DNA of 64,000 bases from a bacterium (GTDB lineage: Bacteria > Campylobacterota > Campylobacteria > Campylobacterales > Arcobacteraceae). The notes beneath the pieces were generated by a model. It saw only the letters and a list, made by a program, of their open reading frames with translations, did not search any database and had not been told where the DNA came from. Location of the stretch: the NCBI GenBank assembly GCA_018816105.1, contig JAHIWE010000113.1, positions 13,340 to 77,339 on the forward strand, given 5' to 3'. Positions 11,306 through 20,319 of the stretch are shown here, piece by piece; within the stretch, counting starts at the first letter, position 1; each line of letters starts with the position of its first letter. The position numbers and the translations under genes were made by a program.

Positions 11306-12793
11306 TTAACTCCTATTTAATGGTAATTGAATAACGAACTTTGTACCAGTATTGGTATTATATACATCAATTTTTCCCAAACTATGTTGTTCTATAATTG
11401 TCTTACTCATATATAATCCCAAACCTGTTCCATTTTTGTTTGTTTTTGTTGAGAAATATGGATCAAAAATCTTTTCAATAACCTTATCCTTTATTCCACC
11501 TGCATTATCTTCAAATTCAACAAATAATCTATCATTTTTTTCATATGAAAAAATATTTATTTGTCTATCTTGTGTATTTCTTTCTATCATAGCATCACAA
11601 GAATTTTTTGCTAGATTAATAAAAACTTGAACTATCTCGTTTAAGTAAATCTCTATTTGTGAAGTAGAATCATTTTTGTATTTTACACTTATAGAATTTA
11701 GTTTAAATAAATATGATAAGAAATCTATAGATTTATCTATAACATTTTTAATATAGACCTCTTCTTTTTTCTTATTTGGTTTAAAATAATCTCTAAAATC
11801 ATCAATTGTCTTTGACATATAATCCAATTGTTTTCTAACTTCAAAAACTACATCATCAAGCATTTCATCTGAAACTTCACCTTTTATCATTTTTAATAAA
11901 GGTAATTTTTGAATTAGTATTGACACAGCTTGTAATGGTTGTCTCCATTGATGAGCTATCATTGAAATCATTTCACCTAAAGCTGCTGATTTTGACTGTT
12001 CAACTAGTAAATTTTGTTGACTTACTAACTCTTTTTGTGAAGTAATATCTTCTCTAATAGCATCATATCCAGTGATATTTCCAGCATTATCAAAAGTTGG
12101 ATGGATTGTAGTTTTAACCCAGTAAAACTCATTATTTTTTTTAAGATTTTTAATTTCACCTTGCCACATATTTCCTGATTTTATAGTTTTCCATAAATTC
12201 TCAAATAACTCTTTTGGCATATCTTTATGTCTAATTATATTATGAGATTTTCCGATTAATTCATATGCTTCATAGCCTGAAATTTTACAAAAAGCACTTG
12301 ATACACTAGTAATAATTCCTTTTATATCAGTTCTTGACATAATTACATATTTATCAACAATATCAATAGATTTATTTAAAGCATTTTCAACTTGAACTAT
12401 AGACTTTGCATAAATATCTAAAACACTTGAAAAAATCTTTTCAAAATAGAAATTAATTTTTTCAAATAACTCAAGACTTTGAAGCTCAGTTTTAAAAGCA
12501 AAATCAATTAATGATTCTTTAAAAGCAGAAAAAAGTGTAAAAAGCTCATTTACACGTAAGTTTTGTTTTTTTAAATATTTTAAAAAATCGATAATTACGG
12601 GACAATTTTGAGTTTTTTCATCAACTCTTATAAGTAAGATATAATGTTCAAGAAAACCAAAAGAGTATCTTTTGACAAGCAAATCTTCATTTATTGAGTA
12701 ATTACGTATTATTTTTATAACTCTAGGAGAACTAATCCAAGTTCTAATAATAGCTATTTTATTTTTTTCAATCTTCTCAATAAATTTATCCAA
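11306..12793 (-). CDS. Cytoplasmic sensor histidine kinase (helical N-domain + PAS/PAC + HisKA + HATPase)
   Basis: Aer/NifL-like PAS 'FCKISGYEAYELIGKSHNIIRHKDMP', H-box 'IAHQWRQPL', 'DNAGG', 'GTGLGLY'; no TM segment. Confidence 0.92.
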   Translation of the reverse strand: MDKFIEKIEKNKIAIIRTWISSPRVIKIIRNYSINEDLLVKRYSFGFLEHYILLIRVDEKTQNCPVIIDFLKYLKKQNLRVNELFTLFSAFKESLIDFAFKTELQSLELFEKINFYFEKIFSSVLDIYAKSIVQVENALNKSIDIVDKYVIMSRTDIKGIITSVSSAFCKISGYEAYELIGKSHNIIRHKDMPKELFENLWKTIKSGNMWQGEIKNLKKNNEFYWVKTTIHPTFDNAGNITGYDAIREDITSQKELVSQQNLLVEQSKSAALGEMISMIAHQWRQPLQAVSILIQKLPLLKMIKGEVSDEMLDDVVFEVRKQLDYMSKTIDDFRDYFKPNKKKEEVYIKNVIDKSIDFLSYLFKLNSISVKYKNDSTSQIEIYLNEIVQVFINLAKNSCDAMIERNTQDRQINIFSYEKNDRLFVEFEDNAGGIKDKVIEKIFDPYFSTKTNKNGTGLGLYMSKTIIEQHSLGKIDVYNTNTGTKFVIQLPLNRS

Positions 12794-13571: not shown

Positions 13572-13829
13572 GTTGGGATTATATCTAAGATTTATCAATT
13601 TTTGCATAAATCTTTTTAAAAGTCTATTAGATAGTTTATTTCAGATTATTATTAATAATATGACAATTTTTCGCGTCAAAACATTAAATTAACTATCAAA
13701 TAAAAGATATAAAAATATTAGTAAAAATTATTAAGTGAATTTAAAAAGAGTTGAATGAGTACAATATCTATAAATATTCACATTTTTATGTACTAAAAAG
13801 TGTTTATATTTAGACTAAATTACTTCAAA

Positions 13830-13847
13830 TGTTGATTGCAATCAACA
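13830..13847. promoter_or_regulatory. FNR/CRP-family box TTGAT-N4-ATCAA
   Basis: Perfect 18-bp palindrome tgTTGATtgcaATCAAca in the recR / LOV-gene intergenic region. Confidence 0.65.
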
Positions 13848-13917
13848 AATCATCTTATTATTCTAAAAAATTAGAATATAATTTTTTAGAATAATTATAT
13901 TTTAATAAACAAAAGGA

Positions 13918-16287
13918 ATGTTTTTGCAGATAATAGAACAATTAAAAATAATGGTCCCATATTTGCCACAAATTATGCAACAAGCTAAATTTGGAATTAC
14001 AATAACAGACCCAAATAAAAAAGACAATCCTTTGGTCTATGTTAATAAATATTTTTGCGAAATGTTTGGTTATGAATATGAAGAAGTTATTGGAATAAAT
14101 TGCAGATTCCTTCACGGTAGTGATAAAAATCAAGATTCTATAAAAGATATTAAAAATGCAATAGATAAAAGAATACCTATTACTAGAATTTTAAGAAATT
14201 ATAAGAAAGATGGTACCTTAATTTATGCAGAACTTAATATTACACCTATAATGGAGAATAATAAATTAAAATTCTTTTTAGGTATTCAAAAAGATTTATC
14301 TTTTGAAAAAAATTTATCAGAAAAGATTAGAAATGCACAAGAGTTATCTAATATTGGATATTGGGAATTAGATTTAATAAAAAATAACCTTTATTGGTCA
14401 GATCAAATATTTGATATTTTTGAAATTAATAAAAATCAATTTGCAGCTTCATATGATTCTTTTTTAGAACTAATACATCCAGATGATAGAGATTTAGTAA
14501 ATGATGCTTATTTAAACTCTTTAAAGACTAAAGAAAAATATTCAATACAACATCGTTTATTAATGGCAGAGGGTAGAATAAAATATGTAGAGGAAAGATG
14601 TGTTACTCATTTTGATAAAGATGAAATAGCAATTAAATCTATTGGAACAGTTCAAGATATTACAAAAATAAAAGAAATTGAGATAGAACTTAAAAAAGCA
14701 TTATCTTTAATGGACTCATACAAATTGGCTATGGATAAATCAAGTATAGTGTCTAAATCTGATTTGAAAGGCATAATAACTTATGTAAATGACAATTTCT
14801 GTGCTATATCAAAATATACAGAAGATGAACTCATTGGAAAACCTCATAGCATAATTAGACATCCAGATAATAAAAAAGAGATCTATGAAGATCTATGGGA
14901 AACTATACAGTCAAAAAAAATATGGAAAAAAATATTAAGAAATATTAATAAATATGGAGAAGAGTATTGGGTTAATACAACTATTTTACCAATTACTGAT
15001 CAAAATGATACTATCATTGAGTATATAGCAATTAGACATGATATTACAAATACTATTGAACAAAAAAACAGATTAGATAATATTGCTAATATAGACTCTC
15101 TAACAGGATTATACAATAGGAACAAGTTATACGATGATATAAATAAAAGTATTGCTCCTGCATTAGCTATAGTTAATATTGACAGATTCTCTGAAATTAA
15201 TGATTTTTATGGACATTCTTTAGGAGATCATTTTATTAAAGAATTTTCTCAGCAATTATCTAATTGTAAAAATTGCAATCATTTAAATATATATCGTCTT
15301 CAAGGTGATGAATTTGTAATATTTAATGATAATGCAAATAGAGATAAATTTCTAGATAAAATTTATGAAATAGATAAAAAACTTAGAAAAGAAAAAATAG
15401 AAATAGATAATGATTATATTTATTTAGATTTTTCAATTGCAATTTCATATGAGTCCAAGGAAGTATTATTAAGAACTGCAGATATGGCTCTAAAAGCAGT
15501 GAAAAAAGATAATAAAAATATTTTAGTTTATAATGATAATATATCTAGAAGTGATGAATATAAAAACAATATTAAATGGTCAAATATTGTAAGAGAAGCT
15601 TTAAGAGAGGATAGAATAGTTTCTTTGTATCAACCTATTATAAATAATAACACAATGAAGTATGAAAAATATGAATCATTAGTAAGAATTAAAGAAAATG
15701 GTAAATATATATCTCCATTTTATTTTTTAAGTATTGCAAAAAAAACAAGACACTATGTTGAAATCACTAAAACAATGATTGAAAAAAGCTTTAAATTATT
15801 TGAAAATAAAAAAGAAGAATTTTCAATAAATTTAACAATTGAAGATATCTTGAATGAAGATACAAAAGAATTCATAATTAACATGCTTAATAAATATAAA
15901 ATAGGAGATAGAGTTGTATTTGAAATTGTTGAGTCTGAATCTATAGAAAACTTTGAAAATATATCTAAATTTATAGTTTTAGTAAAAGCACTAGGTTGCA
16001 AAATTGCAATAGATGATTTTGGAACAGGATACAGTAATTTTGAATATCTTGTAAAATTAAAAGCTGATTATATAAAAATAGATGGTTCTTTAATCAAAGA
16101 TATAGATAAAAATCATATTAGTGAAATTGTTTGTAAGAATATTGTAAATTTTGCAAAAGATCTAAATATGAAAACTATTGCGGAATTTGTAGAAAATGAA
16201 TCAATTTTCAATAAAGTAAAAGAGTTAGGAATAGACTATTCTCAAGGTTATTATTTTGATAAGCCATTAGAAATAAGTAAAGAATAA
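13918..16287 (+). CDS. LOV-PAS-PAS-GGDEF-EAL protein (probable c-di-GMP phosphodiesterase)
   Basis: LOV-type PAS 'ITDPNKKDNPLVYVN...GINCRFLHG...NYKKDG...FLGIQKD'; two further PAS domains; degenerate 'QGDEF'; EAL 'YESLVR', 'EIVES', 'IDDFGTGYS', 'IKIDG', 'SQGYYF'. Confidence 0.9.
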   Translation: MFLQIIEQLKIMVPYLPQIMQQAKFGITITDPNKKDNPLVYVNKYFCEMFGYEYEEVIGINCRFLHGSDKNQDSIKDIKNAIDKRIPITRILRNYKKDGTLIYAELNITPIMENNKLKFFLGIQKDLSFEKNLSEKIRNAQELSNIGYWELDLIKNNLYWSDQIFDIFEINKNQFAASYDSFLELIHPDDRDLVNDAYLNSLKTKEKYSIQHRLLMAEGRIKYVEERCVTHFDKDEIAIKSIGTVQDITKIKEIEIELKKALSLMDSYKLAMDKSSIVSKSDLKGIITYVNDNFCAISKYTEDELIGKPHSIIRHPDNKKEIYEDLWETIQSKKIWKKILRNINKYGEEYWVNTTILPITDQNDTIIEYIAIRHDITNTIEQKNRLDNIANIDSLTGLYNRNKLYDDINKSIAPALAIVNIDRFSEINDFYGHSLGDHFIKEFSQQLSNCKNCNHLNIYRLQGDEFVIFNDNANRDKFLDKIYEIDKKLRKEKIEIDNDYIYLDFSIAISYESKEVLLRTADMALKAVKKDNKNILVYNDNISRSDEYKNNIKWSNIVREALREDRIVSLYQPIINNNTMKYEKYESLVRIKENGKYISPFYFLSIAKKTRHYVEITKTMIEKSFKLFENKKEEFSINLTIEDILNEDTKEFIINMLNKYKIGDRVVFEIVESESIENFENISKFIVLVKALGCKIAIDDFGTGYSNFEYLVKLKADYIKIDGSLIKDIDKNHISEIVCKNIVNFAKDLNMKTIAEFVENESIFNKVKELGIDYSQGYYFDKPLEISKE

Positions 16288-16433
16288 AGTATATGAAAAG
16301 AATACCAAACAATCTAATAAAAGATGAAATATACCTTTGATTTATTGGTATTTCTTGATTCATTTAAGATTTATCAATTTTTAGATAAAATCGCGCCTTA
16401 CAATAATTCAAATATTTTTTAAGGGGATATAAA

Positions 16434-17616: not shown

Positions 17617-20319
17617 ATGTATAAATTACTCTTATTGCTTTTTTTCTTATCTATATATCTTTTCTCTGATACTACAAATCAAAATATAAATAATAATTTT
17701 ACAATAGAAGAACAAGAATTTATTAATACTCACAAAAAATTAAATTTAGCAAATGAAAATGATTGGATACCTTTAGATTATAATGAAAATAATGAAGCGA
17801 AAGGATATGCTATTGATTATATAAAACTTATTTTCTCAAAAATTGGAATAGAACCTATATTTATCAATGATAATTGGGATAATCTCATATCTAGACTTAA
17901 AAACGGAGAAATTGATGTTTTCCCAATATTAGGATATAGCAAAAAAAGAGAAGAAATTCTTAATTTTACAAACTCTTTTTATACTCAAGAATACTCTATT
18001 GTTACAAAAAAGAATAAATTTGATTTTATAAATATCGATGATTTAGCAGGAAAAAGAGTGGCCATGCCCAAAAATTGGAACACTACTAAACTTTTAAAAG
18101 AAAATTATAAAAAAATAAATATAGTTGAGTTTGATAGCCTTGACGAAATTTTTGAATCTGTTAAAAATAATGAATGTGATGCGACCATACAAAGTTCTTT
18201 AGTTGCTAACTATTACATAAATAAAAAATATAGTGATTCACTAAAAATATTAACTAAAATAAATATTAATAATATTGATAATAAATTATATATTGGTGTA
18301 AAAAAAGAGTTCCCAATTCTTGTTTCTATTATAAATAAAACTATTTATAATCTTTCAGCATCTGAACTTGAAATATTAAATAATAAATGGTTAAAAGATA
18401 AGCAAAATATATCTTTTTCACAAGAAGAGTTAGATTTTATAGAAAATAAGATTGTAAATATAGCTTTTACTGATAATTGGGCTCCCATAAATTTTGTTGA
18501 AAATAATAAAGCCTATGGTTTAGGTTATGATTTTTGGCAATATATTGCAGATAAAGCAAATTTGAAAACAAATATAGTGACAAAAAAATCTTTTGCAGAT
18601 GCTCTTGATAGTTTAAAGGATAAAAGTAGTGATATAATTATAGCAACTTCAAAAACTTCTGATAGGGAAGAATATGCTTTATTTTCAGATATATATTATA
18701 AAGCACCTATTGGAATTGCAACACTACAAGATAAAAACTATATTCCTGAACCTTCTTATCTTCTTGGGAAAAAAATTGGTGTAGGGAAAAACTACACAGC
18801 TTATAAAATATTACAAAAAGAGTATCCTAGTATGGATTTTGTTTTTGTAAATAATATTGAAGAAGGTTTATCTTTATTATCTAATAATGAAATATATGCA
18901 CTTATTGATAATTTGCCTGTTTTAACCCATAATATTCAGAAATATGCATATAGTAATATTAAAATTTCTGGAAGTACAGGAATTGATTTTAATTTACAAA
19001 TGATGATTAGAAATGATTATAAAGTTTTGCAATCAATTGTTAATAAAGTTTTAGAAAGAATGAGTCCAAATGATAAAAGTCTAATTTATAATAAATGGCT
19101 AAAACTTGAATATTCACAAGGCTTTGATTATTCATTATTATGGAAATATATTTTACCTTTAATTTTAATAATATTTTTAGTTCTTTATAAAAACAGACAA
19201 CTCTTAAGCTATCAGAAAAAATTGAAAAATACAAAAGATGAGTTGGAAAATACTCTTAAAACTTTTAGAAGTTTAGTTAATTTAACAATTGAGGGAATAA
19301 TAATAGTAAGTGATAATAAAATTATATATTACAATGATGAAATTTTAAAGATTTTTGATATTGATGAAAAAAAACTTCTAAACAACTCTTTTTATAATCT
19401 ATTTGAAATAAATAATCTTATTTGTATTCCAGATATAATTAAAAACTCAGATTCACAAACTTATGAAACAATTGGATTAAAGAATTTTGAAACAAAATTC
19501 CCAATTCTTATAAAATCAAAAGAAGTAATATTTGAAAATAAACTATCAACAATTTTATTAATAATAGATATAAGTGAAATAAAAAATAAGGAAAATTTAC
19601 TTATTCAACAATCTAAGATGGCAAGTATGGGAGAAATGATAGGCAATATTGCACATCAATGGAGACAACCACTTAGTTTAATATCAACTGCTGCTTCTGG
19701 AATGAAAATACAAAAAGAGTTTAATCAACTTGATGACAACACTTTTAATGATACCCTTACTAGTATTACAAATACTACAATGTTTCTTTCACAAACTATC
19801 GATGACTTTCAAAATTATCTAAAAGAAGATAAAGAAAAAAAAGAGTTTGATATTAATACAAGTATAAATAAAATACTTACCATTATAAAAGGCTCATTTA
19901 TAAATCATTCTATAAATGTAATATTAGATTTAGAAAAAGATTTATTTATAAATAGCTATGAAAATGAGTTAAACCAAGCATTACTTAATATTTTAAACAA
20001 TGCTAAAGATGCATTACAAGAAATAGATAAAGACAACAGATATATTCATATTAAATCATATAAAAATAAATCGGAAATAATTATTGAAATAACCGATAAT
20101 GCAGGTGGGATAAAAGAAACAAATATAAATAAAATATTTGAGCCTTACTTTACTACAAAACATAAAAGTCAAGGGACAGGACTTGGTTTATATATGACTC
20201 ATAAAATTATTACTTTTAGTATGAATGGTGATATAAAAATCACAAATATAAAGCATACATTTAAAGATAAAACATTTGACAAATGTGCTAATGTTAAAAT
20301 AACTTTTCCCCTTTCATAA
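17617..20319 (+). CDS. Sensor histidine kinase with two periplasmic substrate-binding (PBPb) domains, PAS and HK
   Basis: Signal/TM, 'DWIPLDY' and 'NWAPINF' PBPb starts, TM at about aa 510-525, 'IAHQWRQPL', 'DNAGG', 'GTGLGLY'. Confidence 0.92.
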   Translation: MYKLLLLLFFLSIYLFSDTTNQNINNNFTIEEQEFINTHKKLNLANENDWIPLDYNENNEAKGYAIDYIKLIFSKIGIEPIFINDNWDNLISRLKNGEIDVFPILGYSKKREEILNFTNSFYTQEYSIVTKKNKFDFINIDDLAGKRVAMPKNWNTTKLLKENYKKINIVEFDSLDEIFESVKNNECDATIQSSLVANYYINKKYSDSLKILTKININNIDNKLYIGVKKEFPILVSIINKTIYNLSASELEILNNKWLKDKQNISFSQEELDFIENKIVNIAFTDNWAPINFVENNKAYGLGYDFWQYIADKANLKTNIVTKKSFADALDSLKDKSSDIIIATSKTSDREEYALFSDIYYKAPIGIATLQDKNYIPEPSYLLGKKIGVGKNYTAYKILQKEYPSMDFVFVNNIEEGLSLLSNNEIYALIDNLPVLTHNIQKYAYSNIKISGSTGIDFNLQMMIRNDYKVLQSIVNKVLERMSPNDKSLIYNKWLKLEYSQGFDYSLLWKYILPLILIIFLVLYKNRQLLSYQKKLKNTKDELENTLKTFRSLVNLTIEGIIIVSDNKIIYYNDEILKIFDIDEKKLLNNSFYNLFEINNLICIPDIIKNSDSQTYETIGLKNFETKFPILIKSKEVIFENKLSTILLIIDISEIKNKENLLIQQSKMASMGEMIGNIAHQWRQPLSLISTAASGMKIQKEFNQLDDNTFNDTLTSITNTTMFLSQTIDDFQNYLKEDKEKKEFDINTSINKILTIIKGSFINHSINVILDLEKDLFINSYENELNQALLNILNNAKDALQEIDKDNRYIHIKSYKNKSEIIIEITDNAGGIKETNINKIFEPYFTTKHKSQGTGLGLYMTHKIITFSMNGDIKITNIKHTFKDKTFDKCANVKITFPLS

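Follow-up and report, generated by a model that had tools for sequence, protein, structure and literature searches.

A LOV-PAS-PAS-GGDEF-EAL gene lying between recR and dnaJ in an Arcobacter-family genome is predicted to encode a multi-sensor c-di-GMP phosphodiesterase with an atypical flavin pocket

About 18% of the bacterial LOV proteins in a 2014 census bear a GGDEF or a GGDEF and an EAL domain (PMC4844311), and in one of the described systems, SL2 of Synechococcus elongatus PCC 7942, a LOV-GGDEF-EAL protein acts as a cyclic di-GMP (c-di-GMP) phosphodiesterase that is turned on by blue light (PMC8846402). Here we describe a gene at positions 13918-16287 (+ strand) of a 64,000-nucleotide stretch from a bacterium of the Arcobacteraceae (assembly GCA_018816105.1, contig JAHIWE010000113.1, positions 13,340 to 77,339), hereafter the window; all positions are those of the window and lie on the + strand unless marked otherwise. 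The open reading frame codes for a 789-amino acid protein with five Pfam domains in the order LOV, PAS, PAS of the flavin adenine dinucleotide (FAD) type, degenerate GGDEF, and EAL, an assignment resting on the list of open reading frames, Pfam, and the orthologues P0001-P0012. We favor, with rather more confidence than doubt, a reading in which this is a soluble multi-sensor c-di-GMP phosphodiesterase with a LOV and an FAD-type PAS domain as inputs, carried on a recent single-gene insert. It is most likely an uncharacterized addition to the known SL2-like group of LOV-regulated c-di-GMP enzymes.

Going by its description in a review, SL2 resembles the protein in having an N-terminal flavin mononucleotide (FMN)-type LOV domain with an adduct cysteine in front of GGDEF-EAL, and its output is c-di-GMP hydrolysis; unlike SL2, the protein has two added PAS domains, one of the Aer/NifL FAD type, between LOV and GGDEF-EAL, its GGDEF domain is degenerate, its flavin pocket carries His66, Lys79, and Ala104, and its host belongs to the non-phototrophic Campylobacterota. 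The closest LOV domain in the c-di-GMP field is that of the LOV-activated diguanylate cyclase 8C05 (47% identical when aligned by Foldseek), a dimer in which A'alpha and J-alpha helices and a coiled-coil linker lead into GGDEF (Sci Adv 2023, PMC10396304); there an active cyclase is fused directly to LOV, whereas here two PAS domains intervene, the GGDEF domain is apparently dead, and the output is EAL. RmcA of Pseudomonas aeruginosa (PA0575) likewise has several PAS domains, including flavin-binding and LOV-like ones, that govern an EAL phosphodiesterase, and it has been linked to the control of c-di-GMP by light and by redox (phenazines) (PMC8846402); the PDB matches include 5M3C, its GGDEF-EAL structure. 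However, the LOV-like PASd of RmcA lacks the adduct cysteine and RmcA is anchored in the membrane and has a periplasmic domain, whereas the protein described here keeps the cysteine and is predicted to be soluble. The LOV domain of Bacillus subtilis YtvA (2PR5) is 41% identical over 121 columns in the Foldseek alignment (TM score 0.75-0.85), but YtvA has a STAS output and a canonical pocket; His66 and Ala104 here correspond to the YtvA mutations Q66H and N104A.

Pfam places PAS_9 at residues 26-128 of the 789-residue protein, PAS_3 at 158-245, PAS at 281-376, GGDEF at 390-534, and EAL at 557-783. Residues are counted from the ATG at 13918; the numbers equal those of YtvA through residue 108, and Gln124 here is YtvA Gln123. 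A first-pass annotation, made by a model from the sequence alone, had called a LOV domain at the N-terminus, and its reading frame and quoted motifs (GINCRFLHG, NYKKDG, IYA, FLGIQ, and QGDEF) were all verified in the sequence. The LOV call itself is borne out. In a phmmer search of PDB sequences, the first 141 residues hit little other than LOV photoreceptors of solved structure (153 matches, mostly LOV), with YtvA-LOV 2PR5 at the top (E=3.4e-30), then 8C05 (E=1.4e-28), and further matches to PpSB1/2, Brucella LOV-histidine kinase, phototropins, aureochromes, and EL222. The NCBIfam YtvA-family model covers residues 18-141 (E=6e-50) and its blue-light histidine kinase LOV model residues 20-133. 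An AlphaFold2 model of residues 1-145 (mean predicted local distance difference test score, pLDDT, 89.8) has an A'alpha helix at 2-22, a PAS core, and a J-alpha helix at 128-144, and all 50 of its top-50 Foldseek PDB matches are LOV structures, with TM scores of 0.75-0.86 for the leading ones. The search pattern of Losi and co-workers, [NS]-x2-[FPGHSA]-x4-[GEQR]-x(9,11)-C (PMC4844311), fits residues 43-62 and ends on the adduct cysteine, Cys62, and GINCRFLH fits seven of the eight positions of GXNCRFLQ. By sequence and predicted fold, then, the domain is a bona fide LOV, with a match scored far above chance. We place its core at residues 20-128 (13975-14301), on which Pfam, NCBIfam, phmmer, AlphaFold2, Foldseek, and the published pattern bear, and a J-alpha-like helical linker toward the next PAS domain at 14299-14388, with a helix at residues 128-143 or 128-144 in both AlphaFold2 models.

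The flavin pocket is made up of T30, N37, N61, C62, R63, F64, L65, H66, K79, N94, A104, L106, and Q124. Read directly from the sequence, the key codons are those of Cys62 (TGC, 14101-14103), His66 (14113-14115), Lys79 (AAA, 14152-14154), Asn94 (14197-14199), Ala104 (14227-14229), and Gln124 (14287-14289). NYKKDG spans residues 94-99, IYA (102-104) occupies the place of the canonical FWN, and FLGIQ holds Gln124. Of the arginine pair that contacts the FMN phosphate, Arg63 is kept and Arg79 is replaced by lysine. As a measure of rarity, the domain was searched against 1.84 billion representative proteins and LOV domains with N-C-[RK] at positions 61-63 were tabulated. Among 181 bacterial LOV domains, position 66 is Gln in 96% and His in 1%, position 79 is Arg in 61%, position 94 is Asn in 100%, position 104 is Asn in 94% and another residue in about 5%, and position 123 is Gln in 81%; in 212 phototropin-rich LOV domains, Gln66 and Asn104 are essentially invariant (Asn104 in 211/212). 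At these frequencies, His66 and Ala104 are truly atypical, as first noted; the annotation counted two unusual substitutions, which are indeed present and rare, and overlooked the third deviation, Arg79 to Lys. Lys79 is common among Arcobacteraceae LOVs and by that comparison unremarkable. Nor is NCRFLH special to this protein: it recurs in 7 of 14 other Campylobacterales LOV proteins, so His66 looks like a habit of the lineage rather than a peculiarity of this phosphodiesterase.

Both rare residues have been studied singly in YtvA, where the Q66H and N104A mutants stay photoactive and recover about three times faster than wild type, with lit-state lifetimes in Escherichia coli cells at 25 °C of 753 s and 620 s against 2100 s (PMC4161478, Table 1). 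According to the same authors, N104 mutations cause no destabilization and have moderate effects only, and the functional LOV protein EL222 has a natural Ala at the Gln66 position (PMC4161478). By analogy, the LOV domain probably still works as a photosensor and returns to the dark state faster, and the altered photocycle proposed in the first-pass annotation is plausible on this precedent.

Beyond this genome, the orthologues P0001-P0012 share the same five domains, with 45-99% identity in the LOV part, and two more distant family members, P0195 and P0220, are 55% and 42% identical; named hosts include Poseidonibacter and Halarcobacter. Cys62 is kept in 17 of 18 aligned orthologues, and Asn61, Asn94, and Gln124 in nearly all. 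Asn104 is kept in P0009, P0010, P0011, P0195, and P0220 and replaced in the other 13 of 18, by Ile, Cys (Halarcobacter clade), Thr, Ser (Poseidonibacter clade), Val (sewage clade), or, in this genome, Ala. A maximum-likelihood tree taken with the table of residues places Asn104 as ancestral in the family, and His66 arose at least three times. In the Halarcobacter clade orthologues L056-L058, the Cys104 is a second pocket cysteine opposite the adduct Cys62, and position 103 is His in L057 and L058 and Tyr in L056. A candidate orthologue in a Sulfurimonadaceae metagenome-assembled genome (L061, JAPHSI010000051.1) was set aside: its 860-amino acid open frame has a PAS-FAD-PAS-degenerate GGDEF-EAL core at 57% identity, and only this PAS-PAS-GGDEF-EAL core is common to the two, the N-terminus not being LOV. 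The sensor region that stands in the place of LOV there is probably membrane-associated, and since the N-terminus differs on a conserved core, the case points to sensor-domain swapping.

Selection on the LOV domain was compared with that on the rest of the protein. The ratio of nonsynonymous to synonymous substitution rates (dN/dS) is 0.14-0.25 for LOV and 0.13-0.31 for the other folded domains in three pairs centered on the window sequence, and 0.12 and 0.20 for LOV in two Halarcobacter orthologue pairs. Mean pairwise identity is 0.62 for LOV, equal to that of GGDEF, 0.62-0.75 for the other folded domains, and 0.54 for the J-alpha linker. Purifying selection on LOV is as strong as on the rest of the protein, and neither identity nor dN/dS supports a decaying LOV domain.

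Several observations nonetheless weigh against a photosensor of this kind. The canonical set of hydrogen bonds to the isoalloxazine ring (Gln66, Asn94, Asn104, and Gln123) is incomplete, with Asn94 and Gln124 kept and the other two replaced; the precedent consists of single YtvA mutants, whereas Q66H, R79K, and N104A are combined here in one domain; and equivalent Asn mutants of AsLOV2 were poorly expressed and unstable (PMC4161478, discussion), so that the effect of mutating this Asn depends on context. Variation in the five-sequence clade that contains the query touches 9 of the 21 positions in the pocket and 20 of the 88 elsewhere in LOV (odds ratio 2.55, p=0.096). It includes Cys62Tyr with Arg63Lys in P0003, represented by one contig, Arg63Ser in the three sequences of the P0007 cluster, and Asn94Ser in P0122. 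The pocket in this clade thus looks relaxed; given the varying positions and the changes at Cys62, Arg63, and Asn94, it appears unusually plastic, which would be compatible with retuning of the photocycle and with partial relaxation alike. Close relatives come, by their contig names, from sewage metagenomes, a light-poor setting, and the gene is accessory, missing from all nine congeners sampled.

Taken furthest, these points would suggest that LOV has lost useful photochemistry in this sub-clade and binds flavin weakly or not at all, persisting to support dimerization or linkage or to sense redox in the dark through flavin, with the second flavin-type PAS domain as the main control. The replacement in most orthologues of an Asn so widely kept elsewhere, pocket variation among close relatives at least as great as at other LOV positions, the relatives lacking Cys62, Arg63, or Asn94, and the sewage origin would all fit. 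But the LOV dN/dS equals that of the catalytic domains, Cys62, Asn61, Asn94, and Gln124 persist in nearly all members, and the corresponding YtvA mutants remain photoactive. Moreover, Cys-less LOV variants are reported to signal via flavin photoreduction (PMC5645311), so loss of Cys62 in one relative need not mean loss of sensing. We regard loss of photochemistry as unlikely, while giving it real weight. Because the YtvA mutants keep a photocycle, the incomplete hydrogen-bond set lowers confidence in canonical behavior of the domain and not in its membership among LOV domains.

The output of the protein is clearer. Residues important for catalysis and metal binding in EAL domains are ExLxR, Asn, ExxE, DDFG(T/A)GYS, Lys, Glu, and Gln, and degenerate EAL receptors are without several of them. 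The EAL domain (15586-16266; Pfam EAL, E=1.2e-60) has all the catalytic motifs, and ESLVR, N638 (FSINLT), EIVESE, DDFGTGYSNF, KIDGS, AEFVEN, and SQG are invariant in 18 orthologues, in line with the EAL enzyme first proposed. The domain would thus be expected to be active as a phosphodiesterase, and with the motifs intact a LOV-regulated c-di-GMP phosphodiesterase is the best reading. The GGDEF domain (15085-15519; Pfam GGDEF, E=1e-22) had been described as degenerate, and it is: it reads QGDEF at 15301-15315 (residue 462), there is no RxxD I-site five residues upstream of this motif, and the first Gly is lost in 18/18 orthologues (QGDEF, QSDEF, SGDEY, QADEY, and HSDEF). Since that loss extends to every orthologue, cyclase activity is unlikely and the protein is better not classed as a cyclase; the domain probably lacks catalytic activity and may have a regulatory role in which it binds GTP. 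Among the PDB matches, the closest enzyme modules of solved structure are RbdA 5XGB, DosP, MorA, and RmcA. The weaker PDB and NCBIfam matches include FimX and LapD, and the NCBI name of the Poseidonibacter orthologue is 'bifunctional diguanylate cyclase/phosphodiesterase', so one might suppose that the protein is no phosphodiesterase and serves, as FimX and LapD do, as a receptor or scaffold for c-di-GMP, or that it both makes and degrades c-di-GMP. Both versions are very unlikely, the first in view of EAL motifs that are complete and invariant across the family, the second in view of the GGDEF glycine missing throughout it.

Between LOV and the output lie two further PAS domains. PAS2 (14389-14703) belongs to the PAS_3 family and has no recognizable cofactor signature; its best PDB match is 3nja (1.4e-9), and the PAS downstream of LOV in Brucella LOV-histidine kinase is another match. 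PAS3 (residues about 278-386, 14749-15075), identified by phmmer against the PDB and by NCBIfam, is of the Aer/MmoS/NifL type of FAD-binding redox PAS. It carries the motif GKPHSIIRHPD...LW...YW, with RHPD at 14857-14868, and matches MmoS 3EWK (E=1.4e-34), the E. coli Aer PAS 8DIK (1.1e-23, with RHPD aligned), and NifL 2GJ3 (1.4e-11); the NCBIfam nifL model covers residues 268-388. In Aer, Arg57, His58, and Asp60 are important for FAD binding. PAS3 is similar to the PAS domains of Aer (E. coli), MmoS (Methylococcus), and NifL (Azotobacter), with the Aer signature GxPHxxxRHPD...W...YW aligned, but the outputs of those proteins are chemotaxis, a histidine kinase, or NifA, and none is paired with LOV. 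From this similarity we infer that PAS3 binds FAD and reports redox state. The first-pass annotation had foreseen a light- or redox-regulated enzyme; LOV is present, and the redox role more likely belongs to PAS3, which it had not recognized. Since PAS3 is of the FAD type, the control is probably by light and redox rather than by one or the other, and the protein is probably a dual light and redox sensor with two flavin domains. Of 207 LOV-motif proteins outside the orthologue group, two combine LOV with the Aer-type motif, and because both are distant members of the same family, the pairing is family-specific within that sample.

The full-length model (pLDDT 78.8, predicted template modeling score 0.40) has folded domains joined by long helices at residues 128-143, 249-272, and 377-392, which by analogy would be the signal conduit usual in dimeric PAS-GGDEF-EAL enzymes. 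We propose that the enzyme is soluble and probably dimeric. In its first input, LOV would bind FMN and form a Cys62-flavin C4a adduct in blue light, and Gln124 would relay the change to the A'alpha and J-alpha helices; in its second, PAS3 would bind FAD and report redox state. Both signals would pass along the helical linkers and through the dead GGDEF domain, which may bind GTP and act allosterically, to the EAL domain, which would hydrolyze c-di-GMP. His66, Lys79, and Ala104 would leave the flavin in a looser network of hydrogen bonds and phosphate contacts, most likely shortening the lit state while the photochemistry is kept. Light could turn the enzyme either on or off.

The gene lies between recR and dnaJ on a unit of 2779 bp flanked by an exact 18-bp direct repeat, TAAGATTTATCAATTTTT. 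The left copy (13586-13603) is in the 5' end of recR and forms the left border of the insert, as judged from the repeat count and an empty site; the right copy (16365-16382) forms the right border, on the repeat count and because the DNA beyond it aligns collinearly with the ancestral recR-dnaJ spacer. TAAGATTTATCAATTTTT occurs exactly twice in the window, none of 100 shuffled sequences had two copies, and the empty site in a congener (G029, locus L067) has one. In each of the nine congeners sampled, recR and dnaJ are divergent neighbors with 50-110 bp between them; the LOV gene lies there only in this genome, and one congener without it has RecR 97.5% and DnaJ 93% identical to those of this genome. 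Since a repeat-bounded insert is absent from the spacer of the congeners, we conclude that this was a recent single-gene acquisition; there is no recombinase gene inside the 2779-bp unit. The insertion gave recR a new ATG start, and recR of the closest congener starts at a downstream TTG.

Such an insert could be a neutral passenger heading for loss, and its absence from every congener sampled, even one with a nearly identical RecR, together with a GC content of 23.3% against 26.6% for the window, is what such a gene would show. Against this, the frame of 2.37 kb is unbroken, several independent assemblies (cluster 1: JGI, ENA, and NCBI/Logan) contain identical or 99%-identical proteins, and the dN/dS of the gene is 0.16 against the 99%-identical copy and 0.16-0.23 against more distant orthologues. 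We hold a neutral passenger to be very unlikely. The near-identical proteins indicate that the gene is stably carried by this species.

More tentatively, we entertain the possibility that the protein is a two-flavin logic gate in which LOV (FMN, blue light) and the Aer-type PAS (FAD, redox or oxygen) jointly set c-di-GMP hydrolysis, with a pocket (positions 66, 79, 104, and others) that is actively retuned between relatives rather than decaying, and that this sensor moves among Arcobacteraceae as a repeat-bounded single-gene cassette. Within our sample, the gate would be confined to this family, whose hosts are microaerophilic, non-phototrophic Campylobacterota. If photoactive, the protein would be the first photoreceptor to be characterized in the Arcobacter family and, to our knowledge, in the Campylobacterota, a group that includes sewage, marine, and animal-associated microaerophiles and for which light is not usually counted as a signal. 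Blue light, itself able to cause oxidative stress, would then be tied, along with redox state, to c-di-GMP, the messenger of motility and biofilm formation. The orthologues form a natural mutant series at the near-invariant flavin Asn (N, A, V, T, S, I, and C) and at Gln66 (Q/H), which would be useful for understanding and engineering LOV photocycle lifetimes. LOV with a GGDEF-EAL architecture being already known, the practical value is moderate; what stands out is this replacement series, the pairing of LOV with an Aer-type PAS, and the arrival of a single gene flanked by repeats.

LOV photoreceptor genes are not rare in the phylum. A LOV-like domain is found in 40 of 184 Arcobacteraceae species genomes (E<=1e-15), the adduct Cys is present in 22 of 29 LOV-like loci checked across those genomes, and about 12-20% of Arcobacteraceae species have LOV domains, in architectures that include short LOV, LOV-histidine kinase, LOV-histidine kinase-receiver, winged helix-turn-helix-LOV, and LOV-phosphodiesterase. 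At seven loci (L025, L026, L029, and L034-L037), the domain is LOV-like with the adduct Cys replaced by Leu, Ser, Phe, Ala, or Pro, and Asn94 and Gln123 are kept. Across the phylum, 16 of 401 evenly spread genomes have a match at E<=1e-20, in 8 of 63 genera, and LOV proteins also occur in other Campylobacterales families. In the 2014 census, only four LOV proteins belong to Epsilonproteobacteria: three are those of Sulfuricurvum kujiense and the fourth is that of Sulfurovum sp. NBC37-1 (PMC4844311, suppl. S1). A literature search found no paper on a LOV protein or blue-light response in Arcobacter, Epsilonproteobacteria, Campylobacterota, or Sulfurimonas. The remark that photoreceptors are not well described in this phylum thus holds for experimental studies and not for the genes themselves.

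Widespread in Campylobacterales are proteins of ~240 amino acids with an OmpR-type winged-helix domain (Trans_reg_C) and a C-terminal LOV (loci L012, L023, L027, L038-L040, L042-L046, L048, and L049), one of which was termed 'RR+LOV' in the 2014 census (PMC4844311). NCRFLH is frequent among them, and in some position 104 is Glu or Asp and the signaling Gln is replaced by Tyr or His; they are likely to be one-component light-regulated DNA binders. The host genome, a 2.78-Mb, 92%-complete Arcobacter-family assembly, has one true LOV, and no BLUF domain was found in it. Photolyase genes, present in 41 of 44 genomes of the genus, fit light exposure in the genus as a whole; as a marker for this genome photolyase was rejected, since it does not set this one apart.

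The start of the gene is probably the TTG at 13924, giving 787 amino acids, and is preferred because orthologue DNA starts at the equivalent TTG; the sequence AGGA at 13914-13917 directly abuts the ATG at 13918. The 5' non-coding part of the insert (13604-13917), read directly from the sequence and presumed to be the promoter region, is missing from the recR-dnaJ spacer of congeners and holds AGGA and a perfect 18-bp palindrome, TGTTGATTGCAATCAACA (13830-13847), ~75 bp 5' of the gene. The palindrome could be an operator; it was not seen 5' of orthologue P0002. In this AT-rich DNA, a promoter scan was uninformative (26 sites observed and 28 expected), and a terminator scan found none. Conserved partner genes were sought by comparison with P0002, whose neighbors, thiamine salvage genes and endonuclease III, are wholly unlike recR and dnaJ; on this comparison, the gene has no operon partner.

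Two histidine kinases lie close by. One, beside recR at 11306-12793 (- strand), has an Aer-type PAS (GKSHNIIRHKDMP...) sharing 49% identity with PAS3, and the order histidine kinase-recR-dnaJ is kept in seven of nine same-genus genomes sampled, with no histidine kinase match at loci L071 and L072. The other, just 3' of dnaJ at 17617-20319, is a 900-amino acid protein that combines two periplasmic SBP_bac_3 domains with a PAS domain and a histidine kinase core.

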